Source of the DNA: an uncultured Spirochaetales bacterium
GTDB lineage: Bacteria > Spirochaetota > Spirochaetia > JABMQR01
Length of the DNA: 64,000 nucleotides
Assembly (NCBI GenBank): GCA_964567895.1
Contig: CAZMOX010000003.1
Span: forward strand, 651-64,650
Direction of reading: 5' to 3'
Shown here piece by piece: positions 13,914 to 35,000 of this stretch. A program made the translations under genes and the position numbers. Each line of letters begins with the position of its first letter. Position 1 is the stretch's first letter. Below the pieces are notes generated by a model, which worked only from the letters and a program-made list of their open reading frames with translations, had not been told where the DNA came from and made no database searches.

Positions 13914-13915
13914 AT

Positions 13916-15097
13916 ATGGAAACCACTCCCGTAAAATATCTTGAGGAACGGCATGATGAGATGCTTAAACTCCTGAAGGATCTTGTTTTAATTCAAAGCG
14001 GTACTCACAATAAACCCGGTGTTAACCGGGTTTGTAATGCTGTAGTAAAAGCAGTTGAGGACCTTCCTGTCAGGATAACACGCCTCGAACATGAGCATTG
14101 GGGAGATACTCTGATCCTGTCAGGCAGTTCGGCAGGTGATTCCGGTAACATTCTGCTGGTTGGCCATATGGATACAGTATTCCCTGAGGATACGGATTTT
14201 AACTGGTATCGTGAAGATGAAAAAAATGCCTACGGGCCGGGTGTTATAGATATGAAGGGTGGTATTGTTTCGATCATTTACGCCCTTAAAGCGCTTGATT
14301 CCTGTAATATGCTTTCCAAAATACCGATAAGAGTAATCTTCAATTCAGATGAAGAAATCGGTTCTCCGGTATCCCGGGAGATTATTGCCTCAGAGGCAAA
14401 GAAAAGTGCTATGTCTCTGGTTACTGAGTGCTGTGGTATGAACGGGGAAGTGGTCACGGGTCGAAAGGGGCGTCTGGGTCTGGAGATGCAGGTTCGGGGG
14501 AAGGCCGGCCACGCAGCTAACTTAACAGAAGAAAAATCCAGCGCTGTATTGGCTCTTGCTTATAAAATTATTAAGATAGAATCTTTAAACAACACTTTCC
14601 CTGAACTGACTGTCAATGTCGGCCTCATAGAGGGTGGTACCGGTCCAAACAGCATTGCTGAAACTGCCATGGCTGCTATCGACATTCGCTTTAGTAGTGA
14701 AAAGACGCTTAGTAACTTCATGATCAGCCTTGAAAAGATCAATAATCGCATTGATGTGGCCGGTACAACGAGTCGTATTGTTAAGGTAGCTGATCGTCCT
14801 GCAATGGTGACAACAGAACAAAACAGAGAACTGTTTTCCATTGCCGCCGAAGCGGGGGAAAGGCTTGGAATCCCTGTAGTTGAGGAATTTCGTTCAGGAG
14901 GTTCTGACGCAAATATTATAGCTGCGGCTGGTACTCCTGTAATTGATGGACTGGGTCCTATAGGCAGATATGATCACAGCGACCGGGAATATATGATTAA
15001 GGAAAGCCTTCTTGACCGGACAAAACTTCTCGTTCTGTTGATAGAATTAGGTCATCAGCGTCTATTATCAGGAAAACTTTTTAAGCAGGTTATTTAA
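13916..15097 (+). CDS. M20 metallopeptidase, carboxypeptidase-G2-like
   Basis: GHMDTVF, GPGVIDMKGG, DEEIGS, GRKG, GGSDAN and DGLGP...HS.REY. Confidence 0.88.
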   Translation: METTPVKYLEERHDEMLKLLKDLVLIQSGTHNKPGVNRVCNAVVKAVEDLPVRITRLEHEHWGDTLILSGSSAGDSGNILLVGHMDTVFPEDTDFNWYREDEKNAYGPGVIDMKGGIVSIIYALKALDSCNMLSKIPIRVIFNSDEEIGSPVSREIIASEAKKSAMSLVTECCGMNGEVVTGRKGRLGLEMQVRGKAGHAANLTEEKSSAVLALAYKIIKIESLNNTFPELTVNVGLIEGGTGPNSIAETAMAAIDIRFSSEKTLSNFMISLEKINNRIDVAGTTSRIVKVADRPAMVTTEQNRELFSIAAEAGERLGIPVVEEFRSGGSDANIIAAAGTPVIDGLGPIGRYDHSDREYMIKESLLDRTKLLVLLIELGHQRLLSGKLFKQVI

Positions 15098-15119
15098 ATA
15101 GTTATCAGGAGAGGTTCTT

Positions 15120-16721
15120 ATGGATATTTCAGCTATTGAAAGCAAATTCCGCTCTACACCGGATATGAAAAGTTCATCTGCAGAAGAGGGTATGGTTGCA
15201 ACGGCATTTCCTCATGCGACCAGGGCCGGGGTGGAAATCCTGCGAAGGGGCGGAAATGCTGTTGATGCAGCCTGTGCTTCGGCATTTGCAATCGGTGTTT
15301 GTGAACCCCAGGCAAGCGGCATAGGCGGCGAATCCAACGCTATCCTAAATATGGACGGCATGACCATAGCTCTCGACGGATCAAGCCGCGCTCCTGGGCT
15401 TGTTGATATCAACACGGTAGATGAGGAATCCCTAAGTACTGGTTACAAGGGGACTACAGTTCCCAGTACTGTTGCCGTCTTAGGACATCTCCATAGACGT
15501 TTTGGCCGGCTGAAATGGAATGAAATTCTGGAACCGGCGATTAATATTGCCAGAGAGGGATTTGAAATTACTCAATTTCAGCATGATCTTCAGATACAGG
15601 AACTATCCCTGTTTAAGAAGGTACCTTCGTTATCCGGTGCAGGTTATTACCTGAAAGATGGTTTAAAACCCTTTGAAACAGGGGAGTTATTTACTCAACC
15701 GGATCTTGTATTAATTCTGCAGGATATTGCAGACTTTGGTCCGGAGTACTTCTATACAGGAAAACCCGCAAGTATCATTGACGAAGATATGCGTGCAAAT
15801 GGTGGATTTCTACGATCTGATGATTTGGGTCGAATCCCCTGGCCTGTTGAGCGCACTCCCATTACGACTAAGTACCGAGGACTAAAAATTGCAACTCTGC
15901 CCCCATCTTCTGGTGGAAGAATGCTGCTCCATACACTGGGAGCCCTTGATCGTTGTCCACCTTCTTTTATTGCCGGACAGACTCCGGAATCATATTCACT
16001 ACTGGCCGGAATATTCAAATCGGCATTACATCTAAACGAAGAGAATATTCCCCACCCCGATTATTACTCCCCTGAAAATGATTTCATGCTGTCTGGAGAA
16101 CCTTCAGATATAAATATTAAAAGTATGATGGAAAATTTTTTTCCTGATGCCAGTGGAGAAACCACGCATCTGTCAGTAATGGACTCTCAGGGTAATTCTG
16201 TGGGTATTACACAGTCAATAAATCATCTTTATGGATGCAAAGCAGCAGCTGAAGGTCTCGGGTTTCTTTATAATAGTTATCTTTCTGATATGAACCGGGA
16301 CGATCCGGAACATCCCCACTACTTCAGACCCAATGGTCTTTCCTATTCTTCAGTTGCGCCTGCAATCATTTTTTACAAAGATTCTCCATGGATGGTTCTT
16401 GGAAGCCCCGGGAGTCAACGGATTTTTACTGCCCTCAGCCAGTTTCTTATCAATGTAGTAGATCGGAATATGACCATATCTGAAGCAATGGAAGAGCCGA
16501 GGATGCATTACTCCATAAACAACCTTATAAGTATTGAAGCAGACCGTTTCCATCCATCTGTTCTATCCCGTTTAAAAGAAGAAGGGTATGAGATCGATAG
16601 ACGGGGATCCTTAAGTTTCTATTTTGGTTCGATTCAGACTGTTCTCAAAAAGAAATCAGGAGGCGGAGGGTTTCAGGGAATCGCCGATGTCAGGAGGGAC
16701 GGAACGGCTGGAGGAATATAG
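15120..16721 (+). CDS. ggt: Gamma-glutamyltransferase family Ntn hydrolase (no signal peptide)
   Basis: GGNAVDAA, EPQASGIGG, autocatalytic ETTHLSVMD, SS motif, LGSPG and DVRRDG. Confidence 0.9.
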   Translation: MDISAIESKFRSTPDMKSSSAEEGMVATAFPHATRAGVEILRRGGNAVDAACASAFAIGVCEPQASGIGGESNAILNMDGMTIALDGSSRAPGLVDINTVDEESLSTGYKGTTVPSTVAVLGHLHRRFGRLKWNEILEPAINIAREGFEITQFQHDLQIQELSLFKKVPSLSGAGYYLKDGLKPFETGELFTQPDLVLILQDIADFGPEYFYTGKPASIIDEDMRANGGFLRSDDLGRIPWPVERTPITTKYRGLKIATLPPSSGGRMLLHTLGALDRCPPSFIAGQTPESYSLLAGIFKSALHLNEENIPHPDYYSPENDFMLSGEPSDINIKSMMENFFPDASGETTHLSVMDSQGNSVGITQSINHLYGCKAAAEGLGFLYNSYLSDMNRDDPEHPHYFRPNGLSYSSVAPAIIFYKDSPWMVLGSPGSQRIFTALSQFLINVVDRNMTISEAMEEPRMHYSINNLISIEADRFHPSVLSRLKEEGYEIDRRGSLSFYFGSIQTVLKKKSGGGGFQGIADVRRDGTAGGI

Positions 16722-17609: not shown

Positions 17610-19055
17610 ATGTCAATATCACTGGGAAAACCAATCAGTAATCAAATTCTGTCAAATGAACAGATACAGCAAGTCAATGACTATGCTCTCCGAATGATGG
17701 AAGAGATCGGGTGCAAGGTACAAAGCACAGAAGCCCTGGATATCCTGGACCGTGCAGGGTGTGATGTAACAAACCCTGATAAGATAAAGATATCCAGGAA
17801 ATTGGTTCTGGAGGCTTTGGAAGCAGCTCCGGGTCAAATAGAGGTTTATAATCGTGATGGAGATCTGGCAATGGAATTAAAGGAAGGTTCCTGTAATTAT
17901 GGTACAGGGTCGGATTGTCCTACTACCATTGATCTTGAAACGGGAGAAAGACGCGCCTCTCTAAAAGATGATGTAGCCAGATTGGCCAGATTCAGTGATG
18001 CTTTGCCCAATATTGATTTTGTAATGTCTTTTGGAATTGCCTATGACAGCCCAAAGGGTGGTAATTTTGTTCATCAGTACGATGCTATGCTGAAAAATAC
18101 AAAAAAACCAATAATTGTCACTGGTCATGGAAGAAATGATATGAACACAATGATTCAGATGGCTGCAGCATCTGTGGGGGGGATAGACAAGCTCAAAATC
18201 AAGCCTCCCCTTGTTCTGTATACAGAACCTTTGTCACCCCTTATTCATACAGAGATGGGGATGGATAAAGGGCTGGTCTGCTGTGATTATGAGGTCCCCT
18301 TTGTCTATATCGGCAGTCCCATGCTGGGGGCATCGGGGCCTGTTACTATTGAGGGCATTCTTGTACAAACCGTAGCGGAGTCCCTGGCCGGGCTTGTTGT
18401 TTTCCAGAAAAAGAAAGAGGGTGCAAAGTTTATTTTTGGCGGTGATGCTACTGCCATGGATATGAAGACCAATATTTTCAGATACGGAGCTCCGGAATTG
18501 AATGTTATTAATCATGGGTTAGCAGATATGGCTCATTATTATAAGCTTCCGTTTTTCTGTATTGCCGGAGCAACGGATTCAAAAGTACTGGATGCCCAGG
18601 CTGGATTTGAATATGCAATGTCCATTTACATGGCAACATTGAACGGTTGCAATATTATTCATGATTGTGGTTATCTTGAGTCAGGTCTTACATCCTCTTT
18701 TGAATCGGTACTTTTTGCAGATGAAATTATAAATTCTGTGAAGTATTTGCTTCGTCCATTGGATTTCACTGAATATACAGTTGCCCTTGATGTGGTGGAG
18801 AGGGTTATGGATGGAAGTAACTTTCTCATAGAAGATCATACAGTGGAACATTTCAGAAAGTCTTTATGGTTTCCGCGTTTTCTGAGCAGAGACCGTTATC
18901 AGACATGGGAAAAGGAGGGAAAGAAGGATCTTGCAATGAAATTGAATGAAGAGGCAAAGAAGATATTTTATAACTATCATCCAGCGGATTTAAAGAAAAA
19001 TACAATTGAGGAAATTGACAGGATAGTTGCCGGCCATCGACCTGATGTTGAATAG
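17610..19055 (+). CDS. Trimethylamine-methyltransferase (MttB) superfamily protein, non-pyrrolysine
   Basis: SPLIH, GASGPVTIEG, AESLAG, FGG..TAMDMKT, YGAPE, DSKVLDAQAGFE and HDCGYLESG. No in-frame amber codon. Confidence 0.88.
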   Translation: MSISLGKPISNQILSNEQIQQVNDYALRMMEEIGCKVQSTEALDILDRAGCDVTNPDKIKISRKLVLEALEAAPGQIEVYNRDGDLAMELKEGSCNYGTGSDCPTTIDLETGERRASLKDDVARLARFSDALPNIDFVMSFGIAYDSPKGGNFVHQYDAMLKNTKKPIIVTGHGRNDMNTMIQMAAASVGGIDKLKIKPPLVLYTEPLSPLIHTEMGMDKGLVCCDYEVPFVYIGSPMLGASGPVTIEGILVQTVAESLAGLVVFQKKKEGAKFIFGGDATAMDMKTNIFRYGAPELNVINHGLADMAHYYKLPFFCIAGATDSKVLDAQAGFEYAMSIYMATLNGCNIIHDCGYLESGLTSSFESVLFADEIINSVKYLLRPLDFTEYTVALDVVERVMDGSNFLIEDHTVEHFRKSLWFPRFLSRDRYQTWEKEGKKDLAMKLNEEAKKIFYNYHPADLKKNTIEEIDRIVAGHRPDVE

Positions 19056-20056: not shown

Positions 20057-21232
20057 ATGAACAGTGATTTCAGGGATCATCTTTCAGGAAAACTTAATGA
20101 AATAAAGGAGATGAAACTCTATAAAAATGAACGGGTTTTAACTACACCTCAGGGTGGCCATATTAAAACAGAAGACGGGAAAAAGGTACTTAACTTCTGT
20201 TCGAATAACTACATAGGTTTTGCCAATAATGAAGAGATAAAAAAAGCGGCTGCCAGGGGCATTGAGAACTGGGGATTCGGTCTCTCTTCTGTCAGATTTA
20301 TTTGCGGGACCCAGTCTATTCATAAACAGCTCGAAAAGGAGATAGCCTCTTTTACAGGATGTGAAGATGCAATCCTCTATGCAGCCTGTTTTGATGCTAA
20401 TGGTGGAGTATTTGAACCCCTTTTCGATGAAAATGATGCAATTATTTCAGATGAGCTTAATCATGCATCGATAATAGATGGAATCAGGCTGTCAAAAGCA
20501 AAACGGATACGCTATAAACATATGGATATGGAAGATCTGGAAAAAGGACTTATAGAAGCCAAAAATTCCAGATTCAGGATAATTTGCACAGATGGCGTAT
20601 TTTCAATGGATGGTGATATAGCACCGGTTGATAAAATCTGCGCCTTGGCAGAAAAATATAATGCCCTTGTAATGGTAGATGACTCACATGCTACAGGATA
20701 TATTGGAAAGACAGGAAGGGGATCATCCGAGTACTGCGGTGTGCTGGGAAAGGTTGATATTATAACAACAACTTTTGGTAAAGCCCTTGGGGGTGCGTCC
20801 GGTGGGTGTATCTGTGCAAGAAAGGAGATAGTTGAAATGCTTAGACAGAAGTCCCGGCCCTATCTTTTTTCGAATACACTTTCTCCTGCAGTAGCTGCAG
20901 CATCTGTAGAAGCTATCGCTCTTTTGAAAAAGAGCAACGGTAAATATTCATCCGATCTAAAAATGAAATCGGATTATTTTAGGGGAAAGATGAAGGACCT
21001 GGGTTTTGATGTTCCCTATGGAGATACTGCAATTATTCCTGTGATGCTCTATGATGAGCATCTTGCAGTGAGAATAGCAGAAAATCTTTATGAAAACGGA
21101 ATCTATGTAATTCCATTCTCATTTCCTGTTGTTCCGAAAGGTAAAGCAAGAATTAGAGTACAGATTTCTACTGAACATTCATTCGAGGATATTGACAAGC
21201 TTCTTGAGGCGTTTAAAAAGGCTTCTGAATAA
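20057..21232 (+). CDS. kbl: Glycine C-acetyltransferase (2-amino-3-ketobutyrate CoA ligase)
   Basis: LNFCSNNYIG, SSVRFICGTQ, CFDANGG, SDELNHASIIDG, TFGKALGG, SRPYLFSN and ARIRVQIS. Confidence 0.93.
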   Translation: MNSDFRDHLSGKLNEIKEMKLYKNERVLTTPQGGHIKTEDGKKVLNFCSNNYIGFANNEEIKKAAARGIENWGFGLSSVRFICGTQSIHKQLEKEIASFTGCEDAILYAACFDANGGVFEPLFDENDAIISDELNHASIIDGIRLSKAKRIRYKHMDMEDLEKGLIEAKNSRFRIICTDGVFSMDGDIAPVDKICALAEKYNALVMVDDSHATGYIGKTGRGSSEYCGVLGKVDIITTTFGKALGGASGGCICARKEIVEMLRQKSRPYLFSNTLSPAVAAASVEAIALLKKSNGKYSSDLKMKSDYFRGKMKDLGFDVPYGDTAIIPVMLYDEHLAVRIAENLYENGIYVIPFSFPVVPKGKARIRVQISTEHSFEDIDKLLEAFKKASE

Positions 21233-21252: not shown

Positions 21253-22146
21253 ATGAATTCACTTGTTGCAGTTCTTGTTCTCCTTTCAGCTCTTCTACAT
21301 GTAAGCTGGAATACTCTTGGAAAGAAGGGAACTCCATCAGCTGCGTTTTTTCTAACTGCTTCATTTTCTTCTGTACTTGTTCTTTTCCCGGTGTTATTAG
21401 TTCTGGGTTTTGATTTTTCGATCTATAGGAAAGTCTGGATCTATCTTGTAGTTTCCGGTTTTTTTCAGGCTGTTTATTACACCGGTCTGGCTGGAGCCTA
21501 CAGAACAGGAGAGATGTCTGTTTCATACCCACTTACAAGAGCGCTTCCTGTTATTTTTGTTCCATTTGTCAGTTTTCTTACAGGAAGTATAGAAGGACTT
21601 ACGATCTATTCACTTTCGGGTATGTTCATAGTATTCATTGGTTGTTTTATTCTCCCTCAGGTAACTTTAAGGCGTCTGTTATTCAAAGAATACTTCAAAG
21701 TGCATACACTTTTTGCAGTTCTGGCTGCTGTTGGGACAACGGGTTATACCCTTCTTGACAGCAGTGCTATGACGATAATTAAAAATACAGCAAGTGATTT
21801 GATCCTTAGTGCTGTTTTCTATTTTATATTTCAGATGATTTTTGTATCCATCTTTCTTGGTCTGTATATTCTAATAAATAAAGTTGAACAGAAAAAACTG
21901 CTTGAAATTATAAAAAAAGAGAAACTCCCAACTGTCTTCGCAGGTCTTATGGTTGCTGCTGCCTATATTCTAATTTTAATCTGTTATCCAATGGTTACTC
22001 ATGTCAGCTATGTTACGGCTTTTCGTCAGATTAGTATCCCATTAGGGGCTTTTACAGGGATGTTTTTTCTTAAGGAAAAATGGAGTGTCCCGAAAATACT
22101 GGGAGTTACCATTATTTTTGCGGGACTGCTGATTGTATATCTTTAA
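21253..22146 (+). CDS. EamA/DMT-family transporter
   Basis: About 10 TM helices; SYPLTRA motif and a terminal FRQISI...LKEK. Confidence 0.85.
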   Translation: MNSLVAVLVLLSALLHVSWNTLGKKGTPSAAFFLTASFSSVLVLFPVLLVLGFDFSIYRKVWIYLVVSGFFQAVYYTGLAGAYRTGEMSVSYPLTRALPVIFVPFVSFLTGSIEGLTIYSLSGMFIVFIGCFILPQVTLRRLLFKEYFKVHTLFAVLAAVGTTGYTLLDSSAMTIIKNTASDLILSAVFYFIFQMIFVSIFLGLYILINKVEQKKLLEIIKKEKLPTVFAGLMVAAAYILILICYPMVTHVSYVTAFRQISIPLGAFTGMFFLKEKWSVPKILGVTIIFAGLLIVYL

Positions 22147-22222: not shown

Positions 22223-22984
22223 TCAGGAAAAAACGGTTATTAATTGCTCTAAGCTCAGTACACCATTATATTCGATGCCCTGTCCTCCCTGTTTAAGCTC
22301 TCCCTTTTCGCCATCTGAATCGCCGAGACAGGTGACAATAATATCCCCTGCGCTTAAGTCTTCTTTTTCTGTGTATACGTTGGTGGTAACTACAATATTC
22401 ATGCCTGCAGCTTTGGCAGCAGTAACACCGTTTTTAGAATCCTCAAAGACTATACACTCCTCAGGCTTTAAATTCCCGGTCTTCAATCCCAGAAGATAGA
22501 TCGCAGGATCAGGTTTCTTCTTTTTTACAACATCTCCGGCTAATACAAATTCGAATTTGATTTCCTTCAGAATTCCATAAGCTACTGCCTCGGCAGCTTT
22601 TTCGTTGGATGTGGTACAAACACCAACCCTGAGTCCTTTTGCAATAGCCTCTTTCATAATCCGTTTTACACCGGGTCGCAATGGGAGGGAACCCTCTTTT
22701 ATCAGTTCTATAAAGATCTCGGTTTTTCTTTTATGCAGTTTCTTAATCAGTTCATCTTCTTCGTCCGGTTTAATCTCTTTTCCAAAGCCTTTGGAATGCA
22801 GGTGGTGACGCATTCTCTCTTTTCCACCAGCAATCTGAAGAAGGTCATGGTAATAATCTACATCCCATTCAAAATTGAAACCAAACTCCTTGAATGTTTT
22901 ATTGAAAGCTACACGGTGGCCGTCCCTTTCAGTGTCTATAATTACACCATCCTGATCAAAAATCAGTGCCTTTATTTCCGCCAT
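22223..22984 (-). CDS. HAD-superfamily IA hydrolase (CbbY-like sugar-phosphate phosphatase)
   Basis: IFDQDGVIIDTERDGHRVAFN, KKPDPAIY and FEDS.NG. Confidence 0.88.
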   Translation of the reverse strand: MAEIKALIFDQDGVIIDTERDGHRVAFNKTFKEFGFNFEWDVDYYHDLLQIAGGKERMRHHLHSKGFGKEIKPDEEDELIKKLHKRKTEIFIELIKEGSLPLRPGVKRIMKEAIAKGLRVGVCTTSNEKAAEAVAYGILKEIKFEFVLAGDVVKKKKPDPAIYLLGLKTGNLKPEECIVFEDSKNGVTAAKAAGMNIVVTTNVYTEKEDLSAGDIIVTCLGDSDGEKGELKQGGQGIEYNGVLSLEQLITVFS

Positions 22985-22995
22985 TTATTTCTCCC

Positions 22996-24096
22996 TTATT
23001 TAGCGCAGTATTCCTTAATAGACTCAACCGCCATTCTGTTCTCTTCTGCAGTACCGACAGTAATTCTGAAGAAACCATCACTATCGTACATTGGATTCTG
23101 TGGTCTTAAGATAATACCCTTTTCCTGAACATAAGCTACTATATCATCACCCTTCTTGCCGGTGCCTTTTGCATCAAAGAGTATATAATTGCCGCGGGTA
23201 TGGAACACAGTCATCCCGGGAATAGCACTCAGTTCTTTCTCAATATAGGCAACCTGATTATTGTTGAATTTTATTCTCATAGCCAGGCCTTCGGTATCCT
23301 CTAAAGCAGCCAGGGCTGCCCACATCGGAATAGTACCCACATTCCAGGGAATAAGTGTTGCTGAAATTTGAGCTACAACCTCTTTGTTACCCAGCATATA
23401 GCCGAATCTCAAGCCTGCCAGACCATATGCCTTGGAAAGGGTTCTGGTAACCAGCACATTCTTATAATCCTTGATTAATTTTACCATTGAATCTTCCAGC
23501 CCGCTATATTCCTTATAGGCTTCATCCACAACAAAAGGTATCCCCAGATCAGCAATTCTGCGAAAATCTTTTTCAGCCATAAAATTGCCGGTAGGATTAT
23601 TGGGATTGGCAATAACAATTAACTTGGTTTTTGGAGTTACCGCTTTAATAATCGCGTCAGGGTCAAAAAGAAGCTGGCCCTCTTCATAGATCATGGGCAC
23701 AGATACCAGTTTTCCGCCTAAAATGTTACAGCGCAGTTTATAGATGCCGAAACAGGGTGTATGCTGAATTAGTTCATCCCCGGGTGCAAGGAAACTCCGC
23801 CACATCATATCATAGACTTCACTGGTTCCATTACCGAGCATTACATTCTCAGGACCGGCAAAACCATTGAGTTCAGCGATCTTTGTACGTACAACACTTC
23901 CAGCGTCAGAATAGCGGTTGGCCATTTTACCGTATTTATTAATTGCTGCCAGTACTTTTTCCGATGGTTGGTGAGGGTTCTCATTGGACATCATGCGGTG
24001 TAAGTTCTTATCTTCCCAGGCCATTTCAATGTGGGGGGAAATATACATTTCTATCCCCTTTATCCAGGGTACAAAATAATCTTCAATCTTTTTCAT
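22996..24096 (-). CDS. HisC-like fold-type I PLP aminotransferase
   Basis: NENP, GNG, NPNNPTG, DEAY, RTLSKAYGLAGLR and RITVG. Confidence 0.85.
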   Translation of the reverse strand: MKKIEDYFVPWIKGIEMYISPHIEMAWEDKNLHRMMSNENPHQPSEKVLAAINKYGKMANRYSDAGSVVRTKIAELNGFAGPENVMLGNGTSEVYDMMWRSFLAPGDELIQHTPCFGIYKLRCNILGGKLVSVPMIYEEGQLLFDPDAIIKAVTPKTKLIVIANPNNPTGNFMAEKDFRRIADLGIPFVVDEAYKEYSGLEDSMVKLIKDYKNVLVTRTLSKAYGLAGLRFGYMLGNKEVVAQISATLIPWNVGTIPMWAALAALEDTEGLAMRIKFNNNQVAYIEKELSAIPGMTVFHTRGNYILFDAKGTGKKGDDIVAYVQEKGIILRPQNPMYDSDGFFRITVGTAEENRMAVESIKEYCAK

Positions 24097-24162
24097 TAAA
24101 AAACAACTCCTAAAGTATATTTGTTTGTAAGGTCTCGAACCTTATCTACTAAAGCTTGTCGG

Positions 24163-25038
24163 TCAAGCTTTACCTGCACAGCCAAAAAGATCAATCCAGT
24201 AGTTGATGCGTTCCTTAACTGCTTTTCTTACAGCCTCATCAATTTTGCCCGGATTGTATTGGTCCCTGTTTGCTGAAATATGGTCAAAAGTAGAATCGAT
24301 CAGGGCGTGTTTCAAATCGGTAGAGACATTGAATTTAGATCCGCCAAGGGAAACCAGCTTTTTGACTACATCCGGCTTAAGGCCGGTTCCACCGTGAATA
24401 ACCAGCGGCGTAGTTAAAGTCTTTCCATTGATGAGCCCGGCTATTGTCTCGAGTCTCTTCATGTCGAGCTTCGGATTCTCGGTCTTGTAGATTCCATGGG
24501 CCGTGCCAATAGCAGGCGCAAAGATATCCACCCCAGTCTCTTTCACAAAGCTCACAGCAGCGTCCGGGTCACAAAGAGCTGCTTCATCACCGGCCACTAT
24601 TACCTGGTCTTCCACACCGGAGACGGTTCCCAGTTCTCCCTCAACGGATATATTACCCAAATTGTGACAGTAATTGCTTACCTCTTTTGTCTGTCTGACA
24701 TTCTCCTCATAAACCTGTTTGGAAGCATCTATCATGATGTTTGTATATCCTGCATCGGCACATCTACGGCAGAAGTCAACATCTGTACAGTGATCCAGAT
24801 GCAGACAGATTGGAATAGGCGCTGATTCAGCTAACGTCCGAAAAACTGCTGCTAATACCTCAGGACCGATTGCCTTGGCTGGTGTTACAGAAGTCTGGAT
24901 AATTAATGGAGCTTTCCTCTCTATTGCTGCTTCTACTACCGCTTTCATCTGAATGATATTGGTAATATTAAAAGCGCCAACTGAATATTTCCCCTCAGTT
25001 GCTTTTAAAAGCATCTCTTTGGCATCTACTATAGCCAT
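24163..25038 (-). CDS. Class II ketose-bisphosphate aldolase
   Basis: GAFN, HLDH, MIDAS, EGELG, GTAHG, HGGTG and KFNV.T. Confidence 0.9.
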   Translation of the reverse strand: MAIVDAKEMLLKATEGKYSVGAFNITNIIQMKAVVEAAIERKAPLIIQTSVTPAKAIGPEVLAAVFRTLAESAPIPICLHLDHCTDVDFCRRCADAGYTNIMIDASKQVYEENVRQTKEVSNYCHNLGNISVEGELGTVSGVEDQVIVAGDEAALCDPDAAVSFVKETGVDIFAPAIGTAHGIYKTENPKLDMKRLETIAGLINGKTLTTPLVIHGGTGLKPDVVKKLVSLGGSKFNVSTDLKHALIDSTFDHISANRDQYNPGKIDEAVRKAVKERINYWIDLFGCAGKA

Positions 25039-25141
25039 TTTTCTCCTCCTTAAAATTATGTAAAATAACTGTCCAACAATCTGTTCCGGTTATTGAACAG
25101 CCCCAATAAATTTAACCCGGAATAATCCGGTGTTTTTCTAA

Positions 25142-25915
25142 TTACTGCCCCTCATTGTAACTTATATGTCGAATATACTTGCCTGTTTCCACCTTGAACA
25201 TATAGCGATCGCCCCGGTAGAAAGACTGCAGTATCTCGATACAAACATTTTGCGAATTATAGGCCAGACTCTCCAGAACAATGCAGGGCGTATCGCTGCT
25301 GATATCCATAAGCCGGGCAATCTCTTTTTCAGCTCTTACCGCCCGGATTGTCTGTACGGAATGATCCAGATCAGCCTTAAAATGGTCTATTAGCAGTTGG
25401 TACATTGACCCCTTTATTTCCATTTCCAGCAACTCGCTGAAATTCTTAAAAGCGTAGTACTGTTTTTCAAGTATCAGCGGGGTTTTATCTGCTATTCGAA
25501 GACGCCCTATTACCACTACATAATCATCAGCATTAATCATAAGCTTTTCAGCCAGTTCTTTCCCGGCTCTGATTTTCTCTTTCTGAATTAGTTTTTCTTC
25601 CAGATTGATGCTTTCCAGATTAAAGTCATCCATAAAGCTCATCATTGAACCCAGCATATGAACAGGCGATAACGCAGCCTTTTTTATTACAAAAACACCC
25701 ACACCCCGTTGTTTTTTTACCAGGCCTTTCTGTACAAGTAGAGACATAGCCTGCCTGATGGTGTTGCGGTTTAGCTGGAAAATCATGGCCAATTCCCCTT
25801 CGGAAGGAAGTTTGGATCCGACTTTGTATTTTTCTGTTTTAATCTCTTTCTCCAGATATTCTGATACCTGAACATAAAGAGGAATTGGACTGGTTTTATT
25901 AATAATGTTCTGCAT
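25142..25915 (-). CDS. GntR (HutC/UTRA) regulator
   Basis: PLYVQ, LPSE.EL...RNTIRQA HTH and UTRA end YRGDRY. Confidence 0.9.
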   Translation of the reverse strand: MQNIINKTSPIPLYVQVSEYLEKEIKTEKYKVGSKLPSEGELAMIFQLNRNTIRQAMSLLVQKGLVKKQRGVGVFVIKKAALSPVHMLGSMMSFMDDFNLESINLEEKLIQKEKIRAGKELAEKLMINADDYVVVIGRLRIADKTPLILEKQYYAFKNFSELLEMEIKGSMYQLLIDHFKADLDHSVQTIRAVRAEKEIARLMDISSDTPCIVLESLAYNSQNVCIEILQSFYRGDRYMFKVETGKYIRHISYNEGQ

Positions 25916-25934
25916 AATTATCTACCTATCTACT

Positions 25935-25952
25935 TGTCTACCTATGTAGATA
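25935..25952. promoter_or_regulatory. Candidate GntR operator
   Basis: Imperfect palindrome TGTCTAC-CTAT-GTAGATA with adjacent TCTAC repeats just upstream of gntR. Confidence 0.3.
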
Positions 25953-26083
25953 CTATATTCCCCCAAAACTGTCAAGTAAAAAATAAATATTATCTCATTA
26001 TTATCTCATAACTACAGAATTATTTAAAAATGTGCATCAATTTTAGTATTCATAATATATACTGTAATGTATGGAGGCTACTG

Positions 26084-27109
26084 ATGAAAGCTCTTGCAAA
26101 AACAAAAAAAGAACCGGGAATCTGGATGATAGATGCACCAGAACCTGAATGTGGTCCCAATGATCTGCTTATAAAGATAAAGATTACAGCTATCTGTGGT
26201 ACGGATGTCCATATCTACAACTGGGATGCCTGGTCACAAAAAACTATTCCGGTTCCCATGATTACCGGTCATGAATTTGTCGGTACAGTTGTTGGAATAG
26301 GAGATGAAGTAGATGGTTTTTCAATAGGAGACAGGGTTTCCGGTGAAGGGCATCTAACATGCGGTCATTGCAGGAACTGCAGGGCAGGGAAACGCCATCT
26401 CTGTAGAAACACAAAAGGTATCGGTGTCAATGTTCAGGGTTGTTTTGCTGAGCTTCTGGTTATTCCGGCGGGAAATGCCTTTAAGCTGGATGATTTTATA
26501 AGTGACGAAGTAGCGGCAATTTTCGATCCATTTGGTAATGCTGTTCATACAGCTCTCTCTTTCAATGCTGTCGGAGAAGATGTCCTTATAACCGGTGCAG
26601 GTCCTATTGGGATAATGGCAGCTGCAGTAGCAAAACATGCAGGAGCGAGGTATGTAATAATTACAGATGTAAATGATTATCGCCTAAATCTTGCAAAGCA
26701 GATGGGGGCGACCAAGGCAATCAATATAAAGAATGACAGTCTGGAAATAATAATGAGCGAGCTTCATATGCTCGAGGGATTTGATATTGGTATGGAAATG
26801 TCAGGTAGTCCTGCCGCTCAAAACCAGCTTTTTCATTATATGAATTATGGTGGTCGAGTCGCAATGCTTGGTATTCCTTCAGAGGAAAGTCAGGTAAACT
26901 GGAACGATATCATCTTCAAGGGTCTGCTCCTTAAAGGAATTTATGGACGTGAGATGTTTGAGACATGGTATAAGATGGCATCCATGATACGATCGGGTCT
27001 GGATATAACAAGGATAATTACCCATCGGCTGCCGATTGATGAATTTGAAAAGGGTTTCGAAATAATGGCTTCCGGTCAGTCCGGAAAAGTCCTTCTTTAC
27101 TGGGAGTAA
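26084..27109 (+). CDS. tdh: L-threonine 3-dehydrogenase
   Basis: MKALAK after [63 protein letters not shown] and SGKV. Confidence 0.93.
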
Positions 27110-27590: not shown

Positions 27591-28031
27591 TTAAAGACTC
27601 TTTTCCAATGGATAATAGCTTTTTATAGGGGGAAATCGCTTAAAATCATAATCTGCAGTATGTACTATTGCTTTATGAGAAAGTGCCAAAGCTGCTATTT
27701 GTGCATCAGTTACTAAATTTCCACCCGCTGAACCAGCCTGGATAAGCAGATCCTGTACATCAGAATAATAACTGCTGCCGGGTTCGAGCACTTGCGTAAC
27801 AGATCGTGAAATCCAGCTATTGATGTGAGAAAATACTTCGGGAATCGACATTGGTTTTGAGAATACTCTATAACTGGTAGCTATCCTCGTAAAAGCAAAT
27901 ATCACTGGATTTACTAAACCAACCGGCTCGTTACCGGATAAACAGGTTTCCCACCACTTTTTTGCCTGGTTATGATACTTAGATGAACTGTTATAGGCAT
28001 AAAGGAGCAAGTTAGCATCCGGAATAATCAT
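27591..28031 (-). CDS. vapC: VapC PIN-domain toxin
   Basis: IIPDANLLLYA, E/W helix, NLVTDAQIAALA and TADYDF.RF. Confidence 0.88.
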   Translation of the reverse strand: MIIPDANLLLYAYNSSSKYHNQAKKWWETCLSGNEPVGLVNPVIFAFTRIATSYRVFSKPMSIPEVFSHINSWISRSVTQVLEPGSSYYSDVQDLLIQAGSAGGNLVTDAQIAALALSHKAIVHTADYDFKRFPPIKSYYPLEKSL

Positions 28032-28300
28032 GAGAAGTCCTTTTTATGCTCTGCTGCTTCCAGATAAGCATCAATTTCCATATCATCAGCAAGCTTATTG
28101 TAACTTCCTGCATCGATTCCTACCCGTAGATCCAAATTGCGTGCTTCTACTTTGAAGGATGGTTCCTGCTTTGCATATCCAGTGGAAAGTGCTTTTCTCA
28201 GGGATTGATTGATAATTTCCTTAAAACTTTTACGACTTTTCTGCATGGTATCCAGAATTAGCTGTTCAACATCAGGGTCAATAGTAATTGTTGTTCTCAT
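28028..28300 (-). CDS. vapB: VapB-type ribbon-helix-helix antitoxin
   Basis: MRTTITIDPDV...SFKEIINQSLR; 4-bp overlap with vapC. Confidence 0.82.
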   Translation of the reverse strand: MRTTITIDPDVEQLILDTMQKSRKSFKEIINQSLRKALSTGYAKQEPSFKVEARNLDLRVGIDAGSYNKLADDMEIDAYLEAAEHKKDFS

Positions 28301-28335
28301 GTAAGCATCATCGCATCATAATATTGTGCTGTCAA
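28301..28335 (-). promoter_or_regulatory. vapBC promoter/operator, probably leaderless
   Basis: TTGACA at 28335-28330 and tandem GCATCAT repeats (28305-28311, 28313-28319) immediately before the ATG; no SD. Confidence 0.45.
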
Positions 28336-28353
28336 GATGATTTCTTCTGAAAA

Positions 28354-28430
28354 GATTCCGAGAAAAAGAAGATTATATTAGAAAATGCAAAGAAATGGTT
28401 TAGAACAACGATTTCAACAAATCATATAAA
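28354..28430 (+). pseudogene. Probable 5' remnant of a type II restriction endonuclease
   Basis: DSEKKKIILENAKKWFRTTISTNHIK resembles the N-termini of REases paired with this MTase type (from memory). Confidence 0.35.
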
Positions 28431-29294
28431 AATATTGATTTTTCTAAATATAGTGGAAAGGTTGATGTTGTTACGGGTGGGTTCCCATGCCAAGCATTCA
28501 GTTATGCTGGCAAAAAGCTCGGCTTTAAAGATGCAAGAGGTACACTTTTTTTTGAGTATGCTCGAGCAATAAAAGAGATAATGCCAAAAATTTGTATTGC
28601 TGAAAATGTAAGAGGATTATTAAATCATGAGGAAGGTAAAACTCTCACCGGAATGATTGATATCTTAGGGGAGCTGGGCTATAGGGTTCTTCCTCCAAGA
28701 ATTCTGAAGGCTATTCATTATAGAGTTCCTCAAAAGCGAGAGAGATTAATACTAGTAGCAATTAGAGATGATATAGATATTGATTTTCATTCTCCAGAAC
28801 CATATAAAAAAATATATACACTTAAAGATGCATTAAAAAAAGGTGAATTATTCAATTCGCCAGTTTCAGAATCACCCGGACAAAAATATCCTGCAAGGAA
28901 AAAAGAGATATTATCAATGATTCCACCTGGAGGATATTGGAGAGATTTACCGCTAGATATTCAGAAAGAATATATGCTGAAAAGTTTCTACCTTGGAGGT
29001 GGGAAAACTGGTATGGCAAGGCGTATATTTTGGGATGAACCCTGTTTAACATTAACTTGTGCTTCAGCACAAAAACAGACAGAAAGATGTCATCCTGACG
29101 AAACTCGTCCATTTACTATACGAGAATATGCTCGAATACAAACCTTTCCTGACGATTGGATATTTGAAGGTTCAATTTCTCAGCAATATAAGCAAATAGG
29201 AAATGCAGTTCCGGTAAACTTGGCAACAGAAGTAGGTTATTCAATAGTCTCATTTCTTAATAACTATTTGCATAGTCGTAAAAAAATATCTTAG
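28425..29294 (+). pseudogene. 5'-truncated C5 DNA cytosine methyltransferase
   Basis: Motifs IV (GGFPCQAFS), VI (ENVRG), VIII (QKRER), IX-X (REYARIQTFPD, QIGNAVP) are present. The SAM-binding motif I (FxGxG) and the start codon are absent. Confidence 0.85.
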
Positions 29295-29420: not shown

Positions 29421-31670
29421 CTATAGATTGCCCATTCCATAGATCTTCAACGTTTCAATAAAAATATTCTCATTCCCGAGAAGCGAGAGATTCATTGAAC
29501 TAGATAAAGTGGGGTATATACGACTTGTCAGCATAAAAGAATCATCACCAAAAATTTCAACTTGCGAACGATCCAGCAGAAGTCGTAAAGACATAAACTT
29601 TCCTTCAGAATGAAATATTCCCCCTGTTTTGTGTTGCCCCTGCCTGGTTTTGGCGGATTTACTTGTATCGATATATATTTCACTGGCATCCACATCTACA
29701 AAAAGCAGTGTCTCTTCATCGTGTGAAGGAGACTGTCTAAATGCAATTCCAAATTTTCCTGTTGTAGGATTCTTAACAGTAAGTTGAATCTCCAACATGT
29801 CCCCAGCGATATCTGCTATTGAGCCATTGACTTCACCAAAAGTAACGGATTTTAAATCAAGCAAAACTTTTTCTCGTAAAGATTCAATTTCTTCAATTGG
29901 AGCAAAACGTAAAGCGTCACCATCTGGAGAAAGGTAGAGAGACAGGGGCACTCCTCCGCCATGTGCCCATCCAGCTGCAAACTCGTCAGCTGGAGAGCGT
30001 TGTCCTTGAGTAATGGAAAATAAAATTGCTCTACCCGTTTTGGGATCAATAAAACCCGATGGACCGGTAAATACTCCTTCTCCAAAATCTATAAGTCGTG
30101 GTTCCTGATGCTCTGGTACAAACCGTGCTGAATCGAGATCAAATTGACCAATAAAATAGTAAATATCTATCTTTGCTCCTTCTCCGTGTGGAAGAAAGAG
30201 GAAAATATCTTTTTCGATTCCTGAATCATTTTTTATTTTAAGCAGTACGGGAAGTTCCCAGTGGAGTCCAAGATATGGATATTGTTCATAAGAAGTATCC
30301 ATTAAAGCCCCACGGTAACTCCAGGTAGATTCAAGGTTTTTAGCGGAGTAGATCAAGGCCATTCCTCCCCTGTTTTCAAATCCCGATTCCATTAAAATAT
30401 AATACATACCCTCTCGTTTAAAGATGAAGGGATCGCGAAACTCTCCGGCAATACCTTGTCCTGGAAGTTGTTCAAATAAGATGTTGTCTCCCATTTTCCA
30501 ATCAATTAGTTCTGAATCATTACTATCAGCAGGATATGCAATCGCAGGAGCCTGATTGATTGGTTTAGAAAAATTCCCTGCAGTAAAAACCAATATTGGT
30601 GTATTATCTTCTTTAATTATTGCACTTCCTGACCATACACCATCCGGAGCAACAGAATCTTTTCCAGGCCACAAGGCTTCTTTTACGCAACGCCAGTGAA
30701 TCATATCCAGACTTATAAAATGCCCCCATTGTATGTTTTGCCAGTAAGGCCCAGTGAGATTTTGCTGAAAAAACAGATGGTAATTCCCCTTGTAATAGAG
30801 CGGAGCATGCGGTTCATTCATCCAGTGTCCGGGTGGCGTTATATGGTATTGAGGTTTATGAATATCTTCTGTGTAGAGTTCTGGGGTAAGTCCAATTTCT
30901 TTGTAAGGAATTTGGGGCAGCTCCCCTCCATATGGATCAGTTAAATTATTATAAATTGCTAATACTTCAGTAGTTGAAAGAGCTTTATTATAAATTGATA
31001 ACTCATCCAGATAGCCGTTAAGCATATTCAAATTGAAATTATTTACATTCTGAGAGTCGTTATTCCGCCCGATAAGTAAAGGATTATCATAGGAGTGAGC
31101 CATAGTACTATTTTTTGGAACACGAGCTGCTTTGACAGGGTATCCATTTTTATAGAGTAACATAGATCCATTTACTCCATCAAACACTGCTGTAATGTGA
31201 CTCCACGTGTATTTATCAAGTAAGGCTTTTTCTTCCATACAATTAAGCCATTCTCGACCTGTTCCTACTTGAAATCCAAATCTTCCATGGCGATACATGC
31301 CTACCACAAAACCTTTCTTCTCACTTCCACTTTTCCAGCTAATTACTGCAGAGAGCTCCCCATTTTCTCCAAGCTCAAACGCTCTCGGCGCTGTACAATA
31401 ACTGATCGAAAATGTTTTCTTTGATAAATGTAAAAAAGGAGGAGTGGGATATTCAATATAATTTGAATATCCATCAAATAAAAGGCATCCTCCCACAATT
31501 CCCTGATCGACTTTCCAAAGAGGATCTCTCTTTTGTTGAAAGGTTCCTTTATCCAATGCATAGTGAACAATCTCTTTACTACCAGAAAGTGTTTCTGTAA
31601 TTAGGGATCCATTATTCTCATCAAATCCCCAATGGGCAATACAATCATTTTTTTTCATTAGATTCTCCAA
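29421..31670 (-). CDS. LamG/ConA domain plus GH32 glycoside hydrolase
   Basis: N-terminal HWGFDE...LDELSIYNKAL, then WMNEPH, WGH, WSGSA, FRDP and WELP, with a C-terminal beta-sandwich (LDRSQVE.F...TSRIYP). Confidence 0.88.
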   Translation of the reverse strand: MENLMKKNDCIAHWGFDENNGSLITETLSGSKEIVHYALDKGTFQQKRDPLWKVDQGIVGGCLLFDGYSNYIEYPTPPFLHLSKKTFSISYCTAPRAFELGENGELSAVISWKSGSEKKGFVVGMYRHGRFGFQVGTGREWLNCMEEKALLDKYTWSHITAVFDGVNGSMLLYKNGYPVKAARVPKNSTMAHSYDNPLLIGRNNDSQNVNNFNLNMLNGYLDELSIYNKALSTTEVLAIYNNLTDPYGGELPQIPYKEIGLTPELYTEDIHKPQYHITPPGHWMNEPHAPLYYKGNYHLFFQQNLTGPYWQNIQWGHFISLDMIHWRCVKEALWPGKDSVAPDGVWSGSAIIKEDNTPILVFTAGNFSKPINQAPAIAYPADSNDSELIDWKMGDNILFEQLPGQGIAGEFRDPFIFKREGMYYILMESGFENRGGMALIYSAKNLESTWSYRGALMDTSYEQYPYLGLHWELPVLLKIKNDSGIEKDIFLFLPHGEGAKIDIYYFIGQFDLDSARFVPEHQEPRLIDFGEGVFTGPSGFIDPKTGRAILFSITQGQRSPADEFAAGWAHGGGVPLSLYLSPDGDALRFAPIEEIESLREKVLLDLKSVTFGEVNGSIADIAGDMLEIQLTVKNPTTGKFGIAFRQSPSHDEETLLFVDVDASEIYIDTSKSAKTRQGQHKTGGIFHSEGKFMSLRLLLDRSQVEIFGDDSFMLTSRIYPTLSSSMNLSLLGNENIFIETLKIYGMGNL

Positions 31671-31863
31671 TTTGGTGATTTAAACAAAATAGTATTCAGA
31701 AAAACATTGAATTCGCTTTCTAAAAAAAACTACCTTATACAGAGGGTTAAGTTGTTTTTCTTTTAAATACAATATTTTGTCAAGAGGTTAGTTAAAAGAA
31801 AACTAAAGAAACAACTGTTTCGAAGTGAAAAGTTAGTTAATACAAAAAAATAGTATTTTTTTC

Positions 31864-31920
31864 TTGACGTGAGGCATATTAGCCAGTATACTCAGATGGT
31901 AAACGATTACGTAAACGATT
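31864..31920 (+). promoter_or_regulatory. lacI-family promoter with tandem LacI-type operators
   Basis: TTGACG-N17-TATACT, then GTAAACGATTAC and GTAAACGATT. Confidence 0.7.
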
Positions 31921-31930
31921 TTATCAAGGG

Positions 31931-32944
31931 TTGGACATGAAGCGAGCAAATATTAAAGATGTAGCCAAATTAGCTGGTGTATCGACTGCAACAGTATCAC
32001 ATGTAATAAACGGTACGAGGTTCGTTGAAGAGGCTACAGAGAAACGAGTTCGGCAAGTAATGACCACTCTGCAATATATACCTAGCCACGCAGGAAGACT
32101 ATTAAGATCTCAGAAGTCAAAAACTATTGCTTTACTAGTTCCTATAATGGAAAGAGATACCTCTTCATCATTTTTTATGTCTATCGCCCAGGTGATCGAA
32201 AAAGTGCTGATCAACCAGGGATACCATCTAATTCTTGCCAATTCTTACGAAGATATAAAACAGGAAAAAGCACAACTTTTGAGTCTTTGCTCAAAAATGA
32301 TTGATGGACTGATTTTTGCCCCGACCGGAAATGACTACAGTTATTTGAAAGAAATATTTCCAGAGAATTTTCCAATTGTTTTTATTGACAGAAAGCCGGC
32401 TACATATAGTGATGACACAACGATAATTACCGTTGATGATTCCCAAGCCATCTATAAGGTCCTGTCTCTTTTTAAGGAAAAAGGGAGAAAGCGGATCTCC
32501 TATATTTCTGGTATTGATGATGTTTTTACCAGTAGACATAGATTGTATGAATATAAAAAATCAATTGATCAACTAGGATATAAAAAAGATGATTCGCTGA
32601 TCCTAATTGAAAAACCGTCGTTTGAAGCAGGAGCTAATCTTGCTGAAAAACTTTTAAGCAGAGGGGTAGATGCAATTTTAGTTGGTAATAATGTAATGGC
32701 TCTGGGTGCTGTGTCGATCCTAAACAAGAGTAGAGTTAAAATCCCAGAGGATATATCATTTGTCTGTTTTGATGACTATTATTGGACACTAGCAGTTAAC
32801 CCTCCTTTAACAGTAATAAAACAACCTGTTCATAAGATTGGTTCTGCTGCTGCTGAAACAATACTAAAACAGATAAGAGAGAACACCAGAAGTATCAATA
32901 GAATAGAATTAGAGGCAGAATTGCTGATCAGAGAATCAATATAA
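31931..32944 (+). CDS. LacI-family repressor
   Basis: IKDVAKLAGVSTATVSHVIN HTH plus a sugar-binding domain. Confidence 0.93.
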   Translation: MDMKRANIKDVAKLAGVSTATVSHVINGTRFVEEATEKRVRQVMTTLQYIPSHAGRLLRSQKSKTIALLVPIMERDTSSSFFMSIAQVIEKVLINQGYHLILANSYEDIKQEKAQLLSLCSKMIDGLIFAPTGNDYSYLKEIFPENFPIVFIDRKPATYSDDTTIITVDDSQAIYKVLSLFKEKGRKRISYISGIDDVFTSRHRLYEYKKSIDQLGYKKDDSLILIEKPSFEAGANLAEKLLSRGVDAILVGNNVMALGAVSILNKSRVKIPEDISFVCFDDYYWTLAVNPPLTVIKQPVHKIGSAAAETILKQIRENTRSINRIELEAELLIRESI

Positions 32945-32961
32945 TTTTTTTATTGGTGACG

Positions 32962-32971
32962 TAAACGTTTA
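32962..32971. promoter_or_regulatory. LacI-type operator upstream of the ABC permease
   Basis: Perfect palindrome TAAACGTTTA, sharing the TAAACG half-site with the sites upstream of lacI. Confidence 0.6.
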
Positions 32972-32981
32972 TATCGCATAT

Positions 32982-33905
32982 ATGACAGAGGATTTGTTAA
33001 TGAATATAAGAAAATCCAACAATAAAAAGATATGGCAACTATATCTTTTTTTAATCCCCACATTACTTTATATACTTATTTTTAAGTACATTCCTATGTA
33101 CGGAATAGTTATTGCTTTTAAAGACTATAGTCCTGCCCTTGGTTTTTTGAAAAGTTCCTTTGTAGGCTTTAAACATTTCGAACGGTTTTTTACTTCTTAT
33201 AAATTTTCCCGATTAATTGTGAATACCATTGGGTTAAGTGTTTTCCAAATGCTTATTTGTTTTCCAGCTCCAATTATCTTAGCACTACTTATTAATCAGA
33301 TACGTAGAACAAAATTTAAACGAGCAGTACAAACCATTCTCTATGCGCCTCATTTTATATCAGTAGTCGTTCTCGTTGGAATGATGCATGTTTTCTTATC
33401 TCCGAGTACTGGAATAGTAAATCATTTTATTGAATTGTTCGGGGGGAAATCGATCTTCTTTTTTGGTGAACCAGGCTGGTTCAAACCACTTTATGTAATC
33501 TCCAGCCTTTGGCAAAGTACCGGATGGTTATCCATTATCTATTTAGCGGCACTATCAGGAATAGATCCTTGTCTATATGAAGCTGCAACTATTGATGGGG
33601 CATCAAAATGGCAGAAGCTGAAGCATATTGATATTCCCGGGATTTCATCAATCATCGTTATTCTTCTTATTTTAGAGGTTGGAAAAGTTATGAGTGTGGG
33701 ATTTGAAAAAGCTTTTCTTATGCAAACAGCTTTAAACAAATCAGCAGGGGACATTATTCCTACATATGTTTATGAAAAACGTATTCTGGATGCAAAATAC
33801 AGCTTTTCAACAGCAGTAGGTTTATTTAATACCATAGTGAATGTTCTACTTCTTGCAGGTGCTAACTACTTTTCAAAACGTCGATCAGACACGAGTCTTT
33901 GGTAG
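32982..33905 (+). CDS. Carbohydrate ABC permease (LplB type)
   Basis: YIPMYGIVIAFKDY, APHFIS and LYEAATIDGASKWQ. Confidence 0.9.
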   Translation: MTEDLLMNIRKSNNKKIWQLYLFLIPTLLYILIFKYIPMYGIVIAFKDYSPALGFLKSSFVGFKHFERFFTSYKFSRLIVNTIGLSVFQMLICFPAPIILALLINQIRRTKFKRAVQTILYAPHFISVVVLVGMMHVFLSPSTGIVNHFIELFGGKSIFFFGEPGWFKPLYVISSLWQSTGWLSIIYLAALSGIDPCLYEAATIDGASKWQKLKHIDIPGISSIIVILLILEVGKVMSVGFEKAFLMQTALNKSAGDIIPTYVYEKRILDAKYSFSTAVGLFNTIVNVLLLAGANYFSKRRSDTSLW

Positions 33906-33914
33906 GGTGGGCAA

Positions 33915-34983: not shown

Positions 34984-35000
34984 CCATAAACAGGATCATC

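Follow-up and report, generated by a model that had tools for sequence, protein, structure and literature searches.

The locus

The window analysed here, the whole 64,000-nucleotide stretch, comes from contig C3 of a 2.99-Mb, 271-contig assembly (completeness 94%) of an uncultured Spirochaetales bacterium and contains a four-gene block that encodes a GntR/UTRA regulator, a class II aldolase, a HisC-like aminotransferase and a HAD phosphatase. We focus here on the substrate of this block, for which an initial annotation had proposed serinol or a longer 2-amino-polyol phosphate and for which we come to lean towards phosphoethanolamine. The block and its immediate neighbours are as follows.

25142-25915, minus strand: GntR/UTRA regulator of the HutC subfamily (PF00392 + PF07702), first gene of the block
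24163-25038, minus strand: class II ketose-bisphosphate aldolase paralogue (PF01116, TIGR00167)
22996-24096, minus strand: HisC-family class I/II aminotransferase using pyridoxal 5'-phosphate (PLP); best model hisC, TIGR01141
22223-22984, minus strand: CbbY-type HAD-IA phosphatase; best PDB match 4UAV
21253-22146, plus strand: EamA/DMT transporter (PF00892), convergent with the HAD gene and co-directional with kbl
20057-21232: kbl (597 bits)
26030-27109: tdh (582 bits), divergent from gntR

As the initial annotation had read them, the four minus-strand open reading frames (ORFs) at 22223-25915 are co-directional and converge on the EamA gene, with no his genes in the window; the gaps between them, from gntR to the HAD gene, are 103, 66 and 11 bases. 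Because the block converges on EamA, which comes after kbl, and diverges from tdh, it splits an often-paired couple: kbl and tdh are usually adjacent and are set apart here by EamA and the four genes. The EamA protein scores 151 bits on TIGR03340 (phosphonate-utilization-associated membrane protein), below the cut-off of 288. The suggestion that it is a functional partner is unsupported, as among 85 loci compared it stands beside the cluster in L010 alone, a near-identical relative. The nearest public relatives of the aminotransferase are from Spirochaetales metagenome-assembled genomes (MAGs), at 97% and 92% identity.

The setting invites a threonine-linked explanation, in which 1-aminopropan-2-ol O-phosphate, derived from aminoacetone or threonine phosphate, would be converted into 2-phospholactaldehyde and condensed with dihydroxyacetone phosphate (DHAP). 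Besides the position of the block between kbl and tdh and the promoter region that gntR has in common with tdh, the 152 bits that the aminotransferase reaches on the model of CobD, threonine-phosphate decarboxylase, speak for it. However, outside this lineage (L010) the kbl/tdh neighbourhood is not seen, the surroundings in the 80-odd other loci being quite different, and the product would be a non-standard 6-deoxyhexulose bisphosphate. We thus regard a link to threonine as very improbable.

The aminotransferase

The aminotransferase scores 261.9 bits on TIGR01141 (hisC), under the equivalog cut-off of 276.55, and is the third HisC paralogue of its genome; the two others pass the model at 333.6 and 286.7 bits. 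The top-scoring one (C45:13739-14770) directly adjoins hisD (C45:14838-16016), so that the real hisC of this genome sits on contig C45 and the enzyme of the block is not its only HisC. The earlier proposal of a dedicated pathway, distinct from histidine synthesis, is thus upheld. Thousands of orthologues of about 70% identity are found in metagenomes and MAGs (Anaerolineales, Spirochaetes, Atribacterota), most of them annotated as histidinol-phosphate aminotransferase.

Residue roles were assigned by aligning the protein to solved HisC-family structures and mapping it onto the roles described for the Mycobacterium tuberculosis enzymes (PMC4703992), and conserved positions were taken from the list of nearly invariant alignment columns. 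Among 26 orthologues, with a mean column identity of 78%, the PLP lysine Lys222, Asn167 and the phosphate-holding Arg331 and Arg344 are invariant, and the Asp, Tyr and Asn cofactor ligands of HisC are also conserved. The initial annotation had invoked HisC-type chemistry, with an amino group next to a phosphoester, and the retention of Asn and of both phosphate-site arginines agrees with this. The side-chain pocket, on the other hand, differs: it consists of Ser92/Phe116/Ile118/Trp251, of which Ser92, Phe116 and Trp251 are invariant or nearly so, compared with Asn103/Tyr127/Met129/Tyr261* in M. tuberculosis HisC, Val86/Phe110/Leu112/Phe246* in the aromatic aminotransferase of M. tuberculosis, and an imidazole pocket with Asp85 and Tyr110 in Escherichia coli HisC (PMC4703992). 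At the aligned positions, the polar imidazole pocket of HisC is not retained, which points to a phospho-amine lacking an imidazole as the predicted substrate. The change from Asp85 to Ser92 was considered as a lone diagnostic and dropped, since Ser, Thr, Asn and Asp are all found at this position within the subfamily (PMC4703992).

The phosphatase and the aldolase

When compared against all PDB sequences, the HAD protein matches Arabidopsis CbbYA best (4UAV; 228 bits, E 1e-66), at about 48% identity over 227 residues by a count of the alignment midline. Rhodobacter CbbY (4UAR) follows at 143 bits, and the best non-CbbY match reaches 84 bits. Within the family, D10/D12 (the DxD motif), H23-R24, N28 and G53-G54-K55-E56-R57 hardly vary, and both crystallized CbbYs share its HR..FN and GGKER cap motifs; one homologue is named CbbY by NCBI. 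The closest relatives thus describe a CbbY-type sugar-bisphosphate 1-phosphatase, and the amino-alcohol phosphatase of the initial annotation is unsupported.

CbbYA strips only the 1-phosphate of xylulose-1,5-bisphosphate (XuBP), giving xylulose-5-phosphate, and prefers XuBP over ribulose-1,5-bisphosphate (RuBP) by about 5000-fold (PMC10212915). The activity of CbbY on fructose-1,6-bisphosphate (FBP) is far lower than on XuBP, and CbbY orthologues are believed to be absent outside photosynthetic organisms, according to a review (PMC9833046). The 94%-complete genome yielded no RuBisCO large subunit, and no association of the HAD gene with RuBisCO or a cbb operon is seen, its neighbours being the aminotransferase and the regulator. 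XuBP, if it is the substrate of the HAD protein, therefore needs another source here. In the methods of PMC10212915, XuBP is prepared from DHAP and glycolaldehyde phosphate by an enzyme-catalysed aldol addition, and the block has an aldolase gene two genes away from the CbbY-type gene. This aldolase, one of three class II paralogues in the genome, of which that on contig C8 scores higher, reaches 290.8 bits on PF01116 and 251 bits on TIGR00167 (cbbA, ketose-bisphosphate aldolase; cut-off 215.6), and lies below cut-off on all equivalog models for fructose-bisphosphate and tagatose-bisphosphate aldolases.

Conservation of the cluster

Conservation was surveyed in 85 loci retrieved through the aminotransferase, in which ORFs were called and neighbours clustered; since many contigs are short and high-GC loci contain antisense ORF artefacts ('c5'), gene counts per locus are lower bounds. 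The aldolase, aminotransferase and HAD genes occur together in 49 of the 85, in Spirochaetota, Chloroflexota and many metagenomes, and because this adjacency recurs, the grouping that the initial annotation had wished to see surveyed is non-random. The aldolase is preceded by a GntR regulator in 27 loci and by a DeoR regulator instead in 14 others. A gene of the choline/ethanolamine-kinase family (about 316 aa) is present in 27 of the 49 loci with aldolase and HAD, usually straight after the HAD gene or ahead of the aldolase. Kinase-less versions are nonetheless common, as 13 of the 33 larger aldolase and HAD loci (at least seven called genes) are without it. Uptake systems in related loci are of three kinds: a PotD/PotF-like ABC transporter, an Opp-type ABC transporter with a binding protein of about 680 aa, or a TRAP transporter. 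Because uptake systems and a kinase usually accompany the family, the architecture of the operon is catabolic, for an imported small amine, and not biosynthetic.

Two further observations concern these genes. In nine high-GC loci (L013, L080, L086, L096, L103, L108, L117, L121, L122) the operon also carries CBS-domain proteins and an 812-aa DAO+FAO_M+GcvT enzyme; the latter resembles dimethylglycine/sarcosine dehydrogenases and hints that N-methylated ethanolamines may be demethylated before entry. The cluster kinase (L086:3819-4745, L011:2604-3557) reaches up to 240 bits on the model of the guanitoxin kinase GntI and the aminotransferase 137 bits on that of the guanitoxin PLP enzyme GntC, both below cut-off; the guanitoxin kinase/PLP pair may derive from this primary-metabolic kinase/aminotransferase pair.

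Exchange of partners around the aminotransferase

Closely related aminotransferases are also found with other partners. Those of L050 and L067 are 78-83% identical to that of the window and have no aldolase/CbbY pair in the fetched stretch; a split transketolase follows the aminotransferase, and in L067 this is followed by a 149-aa gene and a divergent transaldolase/FSA-family gene, while the fetched part of L050 stops after the transketolase. The transketolase, 149-aa and transaldolase genes recur in L060, which keeps the aldolase. A C2 phospho-aldehyde and transketolase would give erythrulose-4-phosphate, and an RpiB-type isomerase was therefore predicted for the 149-aa gene before the assignment was checked; it does belong to the RpiB family (PF02502, 176 bits). 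PMC10733421, with reference to Barbier 2014, mentions an RpiB-type isomerase activity that converts erythrulose-4-phosphate into erythrose-4-phosphate. Downstream of the aminotransferase, L073 and L094 carry a gene of the transaldolase family and one for a HAD-IIA phosphatase, phosphoglycolate-phosphatase type. In a FastTree phylogeny of 72 aminotransferases, the transketolase-linked ones nest within a well-supported clade linked to aldolase and CbbY, and partners have thus been exchanged around one enzyme.

The swapped partners all accept an aldehyde phosphate or consume xylulose-5-phosphate, and none is needed for a DHAP product. The exchanges would be pointless if the aminotransferase made DHAP. 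The idea that the aldolase serves as DHAP supplier is unsupported; it is more likely that the aldolase condenses DHAP with a C2 phospho-aldehyde.

In the serinol scheme, run catabolically, serinol phosphate would be converted into DHAP, from which the aldolase would build FBP for the HAD protein to act on as an FBP phosphatase (FBPase), providing an exit towards gluconeogenesis, and the same steps reversed would amount to serinol synthesis. Serinol phosphate does fit the HisC-type N-C-C-O-P geometry and the retained arginine pair, Ser92 could hydrogen-bond its hydroxymethyl group, and CbbY has some FBP activity (PMC9833046). DHAP, however, already belongs to central metabolism, so that a dedicated aldolase, transketolase, RpiB or transaldolase would be superfluous, and yet it is these that are swapped beside near-identical aminotransferases; moreover, the HAD protein shares about 48% of its residues with an XuBP-specific enzyme, and the uptake systems and the kinase argue against biosynthesis. 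Serinol is not known to be a common substrate in sediments. Serinol is thus unlikely, be it as substrate or as product. What stands of the route first annotated is a self-contained, non-histidine pathway with HisC-type chemistry at a phosphoester, and what is left unsupported is the serinol/DHAP scheme.

Its longer variant, in which a 2-amino-polyol phosphorylated at C1 is transaminated to a ketose-1-phosphate that the aldolase cleaves into DHAP and an aldehyde, is chemically coherent with a kinase, a HisC-like aminotransferase and a class II aldolase. In this variant, however, the CbbY-type bisphosphate phosphatase would have no part to play; transaldolase and transketolase are inactive on ketose-1-phosphates, and the hydrophobic pocket (Trp251, Phe116) looks ill-suited to a polyol tail. 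This cleavage was the explanation favoured first, was dropped once the CbbY-like HAD and the transaldolase/transketolase variants were seen, and is in our view quite improbable.

Proposed pathway

On balance, and by a modest preference, we favour a catabolic shunt through which a two-carbon amino alcohol would enter the pentose phosphate pathway, phosphoethanolamine being turned into xylulose-5-phosphate via glycolaldehyde phosphate and XuBP. First of all, phosphoethanolamine would be made, in most relatives, by the choline/ethanolamine-kinase-like enzyme. Second, the HisC-like aminotransferase would convert it into glycolaldehyde phosphate, with a 2-oxo acid, for which we propose 2-oxoglutarate, as the nitrogen acceptor. 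Third, the class II aldolase would join DHAP and glycolaldehyde phosphate into D-xylulose-1,5-bisphosphate. Finally, the CbbY-type HAD protein would release inorganic phosphate from XuBP to give xylulose-5-phosphate, which transketolase would take over; this irreversible step would pull forward the unfavourable transamination of an amine to an aldehyde. The N-C-C-O-P spacing is equal in phosphoethanolamine and histidinol phosphate, and the former, being the latter minus its side chain, would thus fit the retained phosphate site. Transketolase is present in the genome and EutB was not found in it. A further match to the transketolase N-terminus in this genome (C128:3458-3982) contains one in-frame TAG, which may reflect gene breakage or an error of assembly.

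Several points weigh against a phosphoethanolamine shunt. Searches of this genome with a protein query, PF01633 and PF01636 gave no gene of the choline-kinase family, the only APH-family protein (PF01636) being aminoglycoside-kinase-like and unrelated to the cluster kinase; kinase-less carriers may take up or generate phosphoethanolamine directly. HisC-type enzymes normally yield a ketone and not an aldehyde, and the pocket residues do not discriminate between phosphoethanolamine, serinol phosphate and analogues with a sulfate or phosphonate group. In the literature, we found no published phosphoethanolamine transaminase, no link between phosphoethanolamine and glycolaldehyde phosphate and no ethanolamine route through a kinase, an aminotransferase and an aldolase. 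In L060, the aldolase is present but the fetched stretch shows no CbbY, and CbbY has weak FBPase activity (PMC9833046).

Substrate supply

A candidate feeder system lies about 10 kb from the block in the window, as assigned with Pfam.

3993-11884, minus strand: Opp/Dpp-type ABC transporter and sulfatase-family enzyme
9863-11884, minus strand: binding protein of this transporter
8764-9762 and 7643-8767, minus strand: permeases
6613-7719 and 5519-6613, minus strand: ATPases
3993-5522, minus strand: Cys-type sulfatase-family enzyme; CGPSR formylglycine motif intact, signal peptide absent

An Opp-type transporter follows the HAD gene in 11 loci (L059 and ten others), and the transporter and sulfatase genes of the window are 68-76% identical, gene for gene and in the same order, to the genes directly downstream of the L059 HAD gene. 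By this synteny elsewhere, the transporter is likely to be the uptake or feeder system of the operon. Speculatively, the sulfatase may act on an imported ester to set the pathway substrate free, and its lack of a signal peptide suggests that such an ester would be desulfated, or its phosphodiester cleaved, in the cytoplasm. An M20 peptidase gene (2590-3933) follows the sulfatase gene.

The sulfatase raises the question of whether the substrate could instead be 2-aminoethylphosphonate or ethanolamine-O-sulfate, with a 5-phosphono or 5-sulfo pentulose as product. The phosphate site of M. tuberculosis HisC also binds the sulfonate of MES (2-(N-morpholino)ethanesulfonic acid; PMC4703992). Both here and in L059, the last gene of the linked transporter operon encodes a cytoplasmic sulfatase of the Cys type, phosphonate-utilization models pick up EamA and GntR, though below threshold, and in L009 a class V aminotransferase and a HAD hydrolase, putatively PhnW/PhnX-like, face the cluster. 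Against this, most loci have a kinase beside the cluster, which implies that the substrate has to be phosphorylated, the sulfatase is linked in two loci only, and the products would be dead-end analogues requiring further enzymes. We thus deem such analogues improbable. As an observation in its own right, the L009 pair (2584-4747, minus strand, in a 97%-identical relative) faces the CbbY gene where EamA and kbl are found in the window, and may be a pair for 2-aminoethylphosphonate.

Regulation

The GntR protein contains PF00392 at residues 13-76 (63.7 bits) and PF07702 (UTRA) at residues 106-238 (112 bits), and would presumably repress the operon until an intermediate accumulates. A promoter scan for consensus matches, together with reading by eye, yielded one candidate region.

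25920-25985, minus strand: candidate gntR promoter TTTACT-17-TATAGT and palindrome

The palindrome, TCTAC-ATAG-GTAGA (5-4-5), comes after the promoter and lies with repeated GTAGA words just ahead of the gntR start; TCTACATAGGTAGA is the candidate GntR site, and an autoregulatory operator is plausible. An inverted-repeat search of the regulatory regions gave no match. The divergent promoter region common to gntR and tdh spans 114-170 bases, and tdh might therefore be co-regulated. The hairpin between gntR and the aldolase gene is weak and has no good T-run, so that the four genes may form one transcript.

Other genes in the window

Beyond tdh, within 27591-29294, lie a PIN-domain gene with a small upstream ORF, resembling a toxin-antitoxin pair, and a C5 cytosine methylase ORF that covers profile positions 103-323 only and is N-terminally truncated; both look like mobile or defence remnants. 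A separate fructan-utilization locus follows at 29421-36440, with two GH32 fructan hydrolases, a LacI regulator and ABC permeases. Between the ABC operon and an MttB gene, the run at 12333-16721 (plus strand) encodes a radical-SAM lysine-2,3-aminomutase-like protein, an M20 peptidase and a gamma-glutamyltranspeptidase, and is possibly concerned with the processing of gamma-glutamyl or beta-amino compounds. The MttB-family methyltransferase itself (17610-19055, plus strand; 283 bits) is stand-alone and non-pyrrolysine, and lies between AsnC and HTH-cupin regulators.

Implications and comparison with known systems

Phosphatidylethanolamine supplies guts and sediments with ethanolamine, a major source of carbon and nitrogen there, and the textbook routes for ethanolamine use need B12 (EutBC) or release acetaldehyde. 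Whether the operon family amounts to a widespread B12-independent assimilation of (phospho)ethanolamine in anaerobic sediment bacteria (Anaerolineales, Spirochaetota, Atribacterota), with a phosphoethanolamine transaminase, a catabolic CbbY and interchangeable modules, is in our judgement evenly balanced. The pathway would be new, yet assembled from known enzyme families, and it is purely predicted, in every substrate and activity. If it is true, C2 and C3 units would be joined into xylulose-5-phosphate without carbon loss and with the nitrogen captured as glutamate, and phosphoethanolamine transaminase would be a new enzyme activity. CbbY would gain a primary catabolic role outside photosynthesis, explaining CbbY-like genes without RuBisCO; thousands of 'histidinol-phosphate aminotransferase' annotations would have to be corrected, and metabolic engineering would have a ready-made C2+C3-to-C5 module at hand.

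Known counterparts exist for the aminotransferase and the phosphatase. The aminotransferase shares with HisC (E. coli 1FG3, M. tuberculosis 4R8D) the subfamily I-beta fold, the PLP lysine, the cofactor ligands and the two phosphate arginines; unlike HisC, it scores below the cut-off, lies outside a his operon and has Ser/Phe/Ile/Trp in place of the imidazole pocket, and its proposed substrate has no side chain, so that the product would be an aldehyde rather than a ketone. The phosphatase has the HAD-IA fold and the DxD and cap motifs of the known XuBP phosphatases (Rhodobacter sphaeroides CbbY, 4UAS; Arabidopsis CbbYA At3g48420, 4UAV), and the proposed reaction, XuBP to xylulose-5-phosphate, is identical. 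Whereas those enzymes repair a misfire product of RuBisCO and are located in cbb operons or chloroplasts, the one described here is in a catabolic operon, and XuBP would be a pathway intermediate.

At the level of the pathway, EutBC and the phosphoethanolamine phospho-lyase (ETNPPL type), which uses PLP and starts from phosphoethanolamine, have the same starting compound. These enzymes release acetaldehyde and free ammonia, EutBC in a B12-dependent manner, whereas the route proposed here would keep the C2 unit phosphorylated, pass the nitrogen to a keto acid and build a C5 sugar phosphate. The RtxA-type DHAP aminotransferase, which makes serinol phosphate in rhizobitoxine producers, also transaminates next to a phosphoester; that system is biosynthetic, and the present operon, catabolic in architecture and with a CbbY-type phosphatase, is set apart from it by context. 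Finally, sulfoglycolysis (sulfo-EMP, sulfo-TAL, sulfo-TK) couples one entry reaction to an aldolase, transaldolase or transketolase module. The logic of interchangeable modules is thus alike, while substrates and enzymes differ and the resemblance is one of architecture only.

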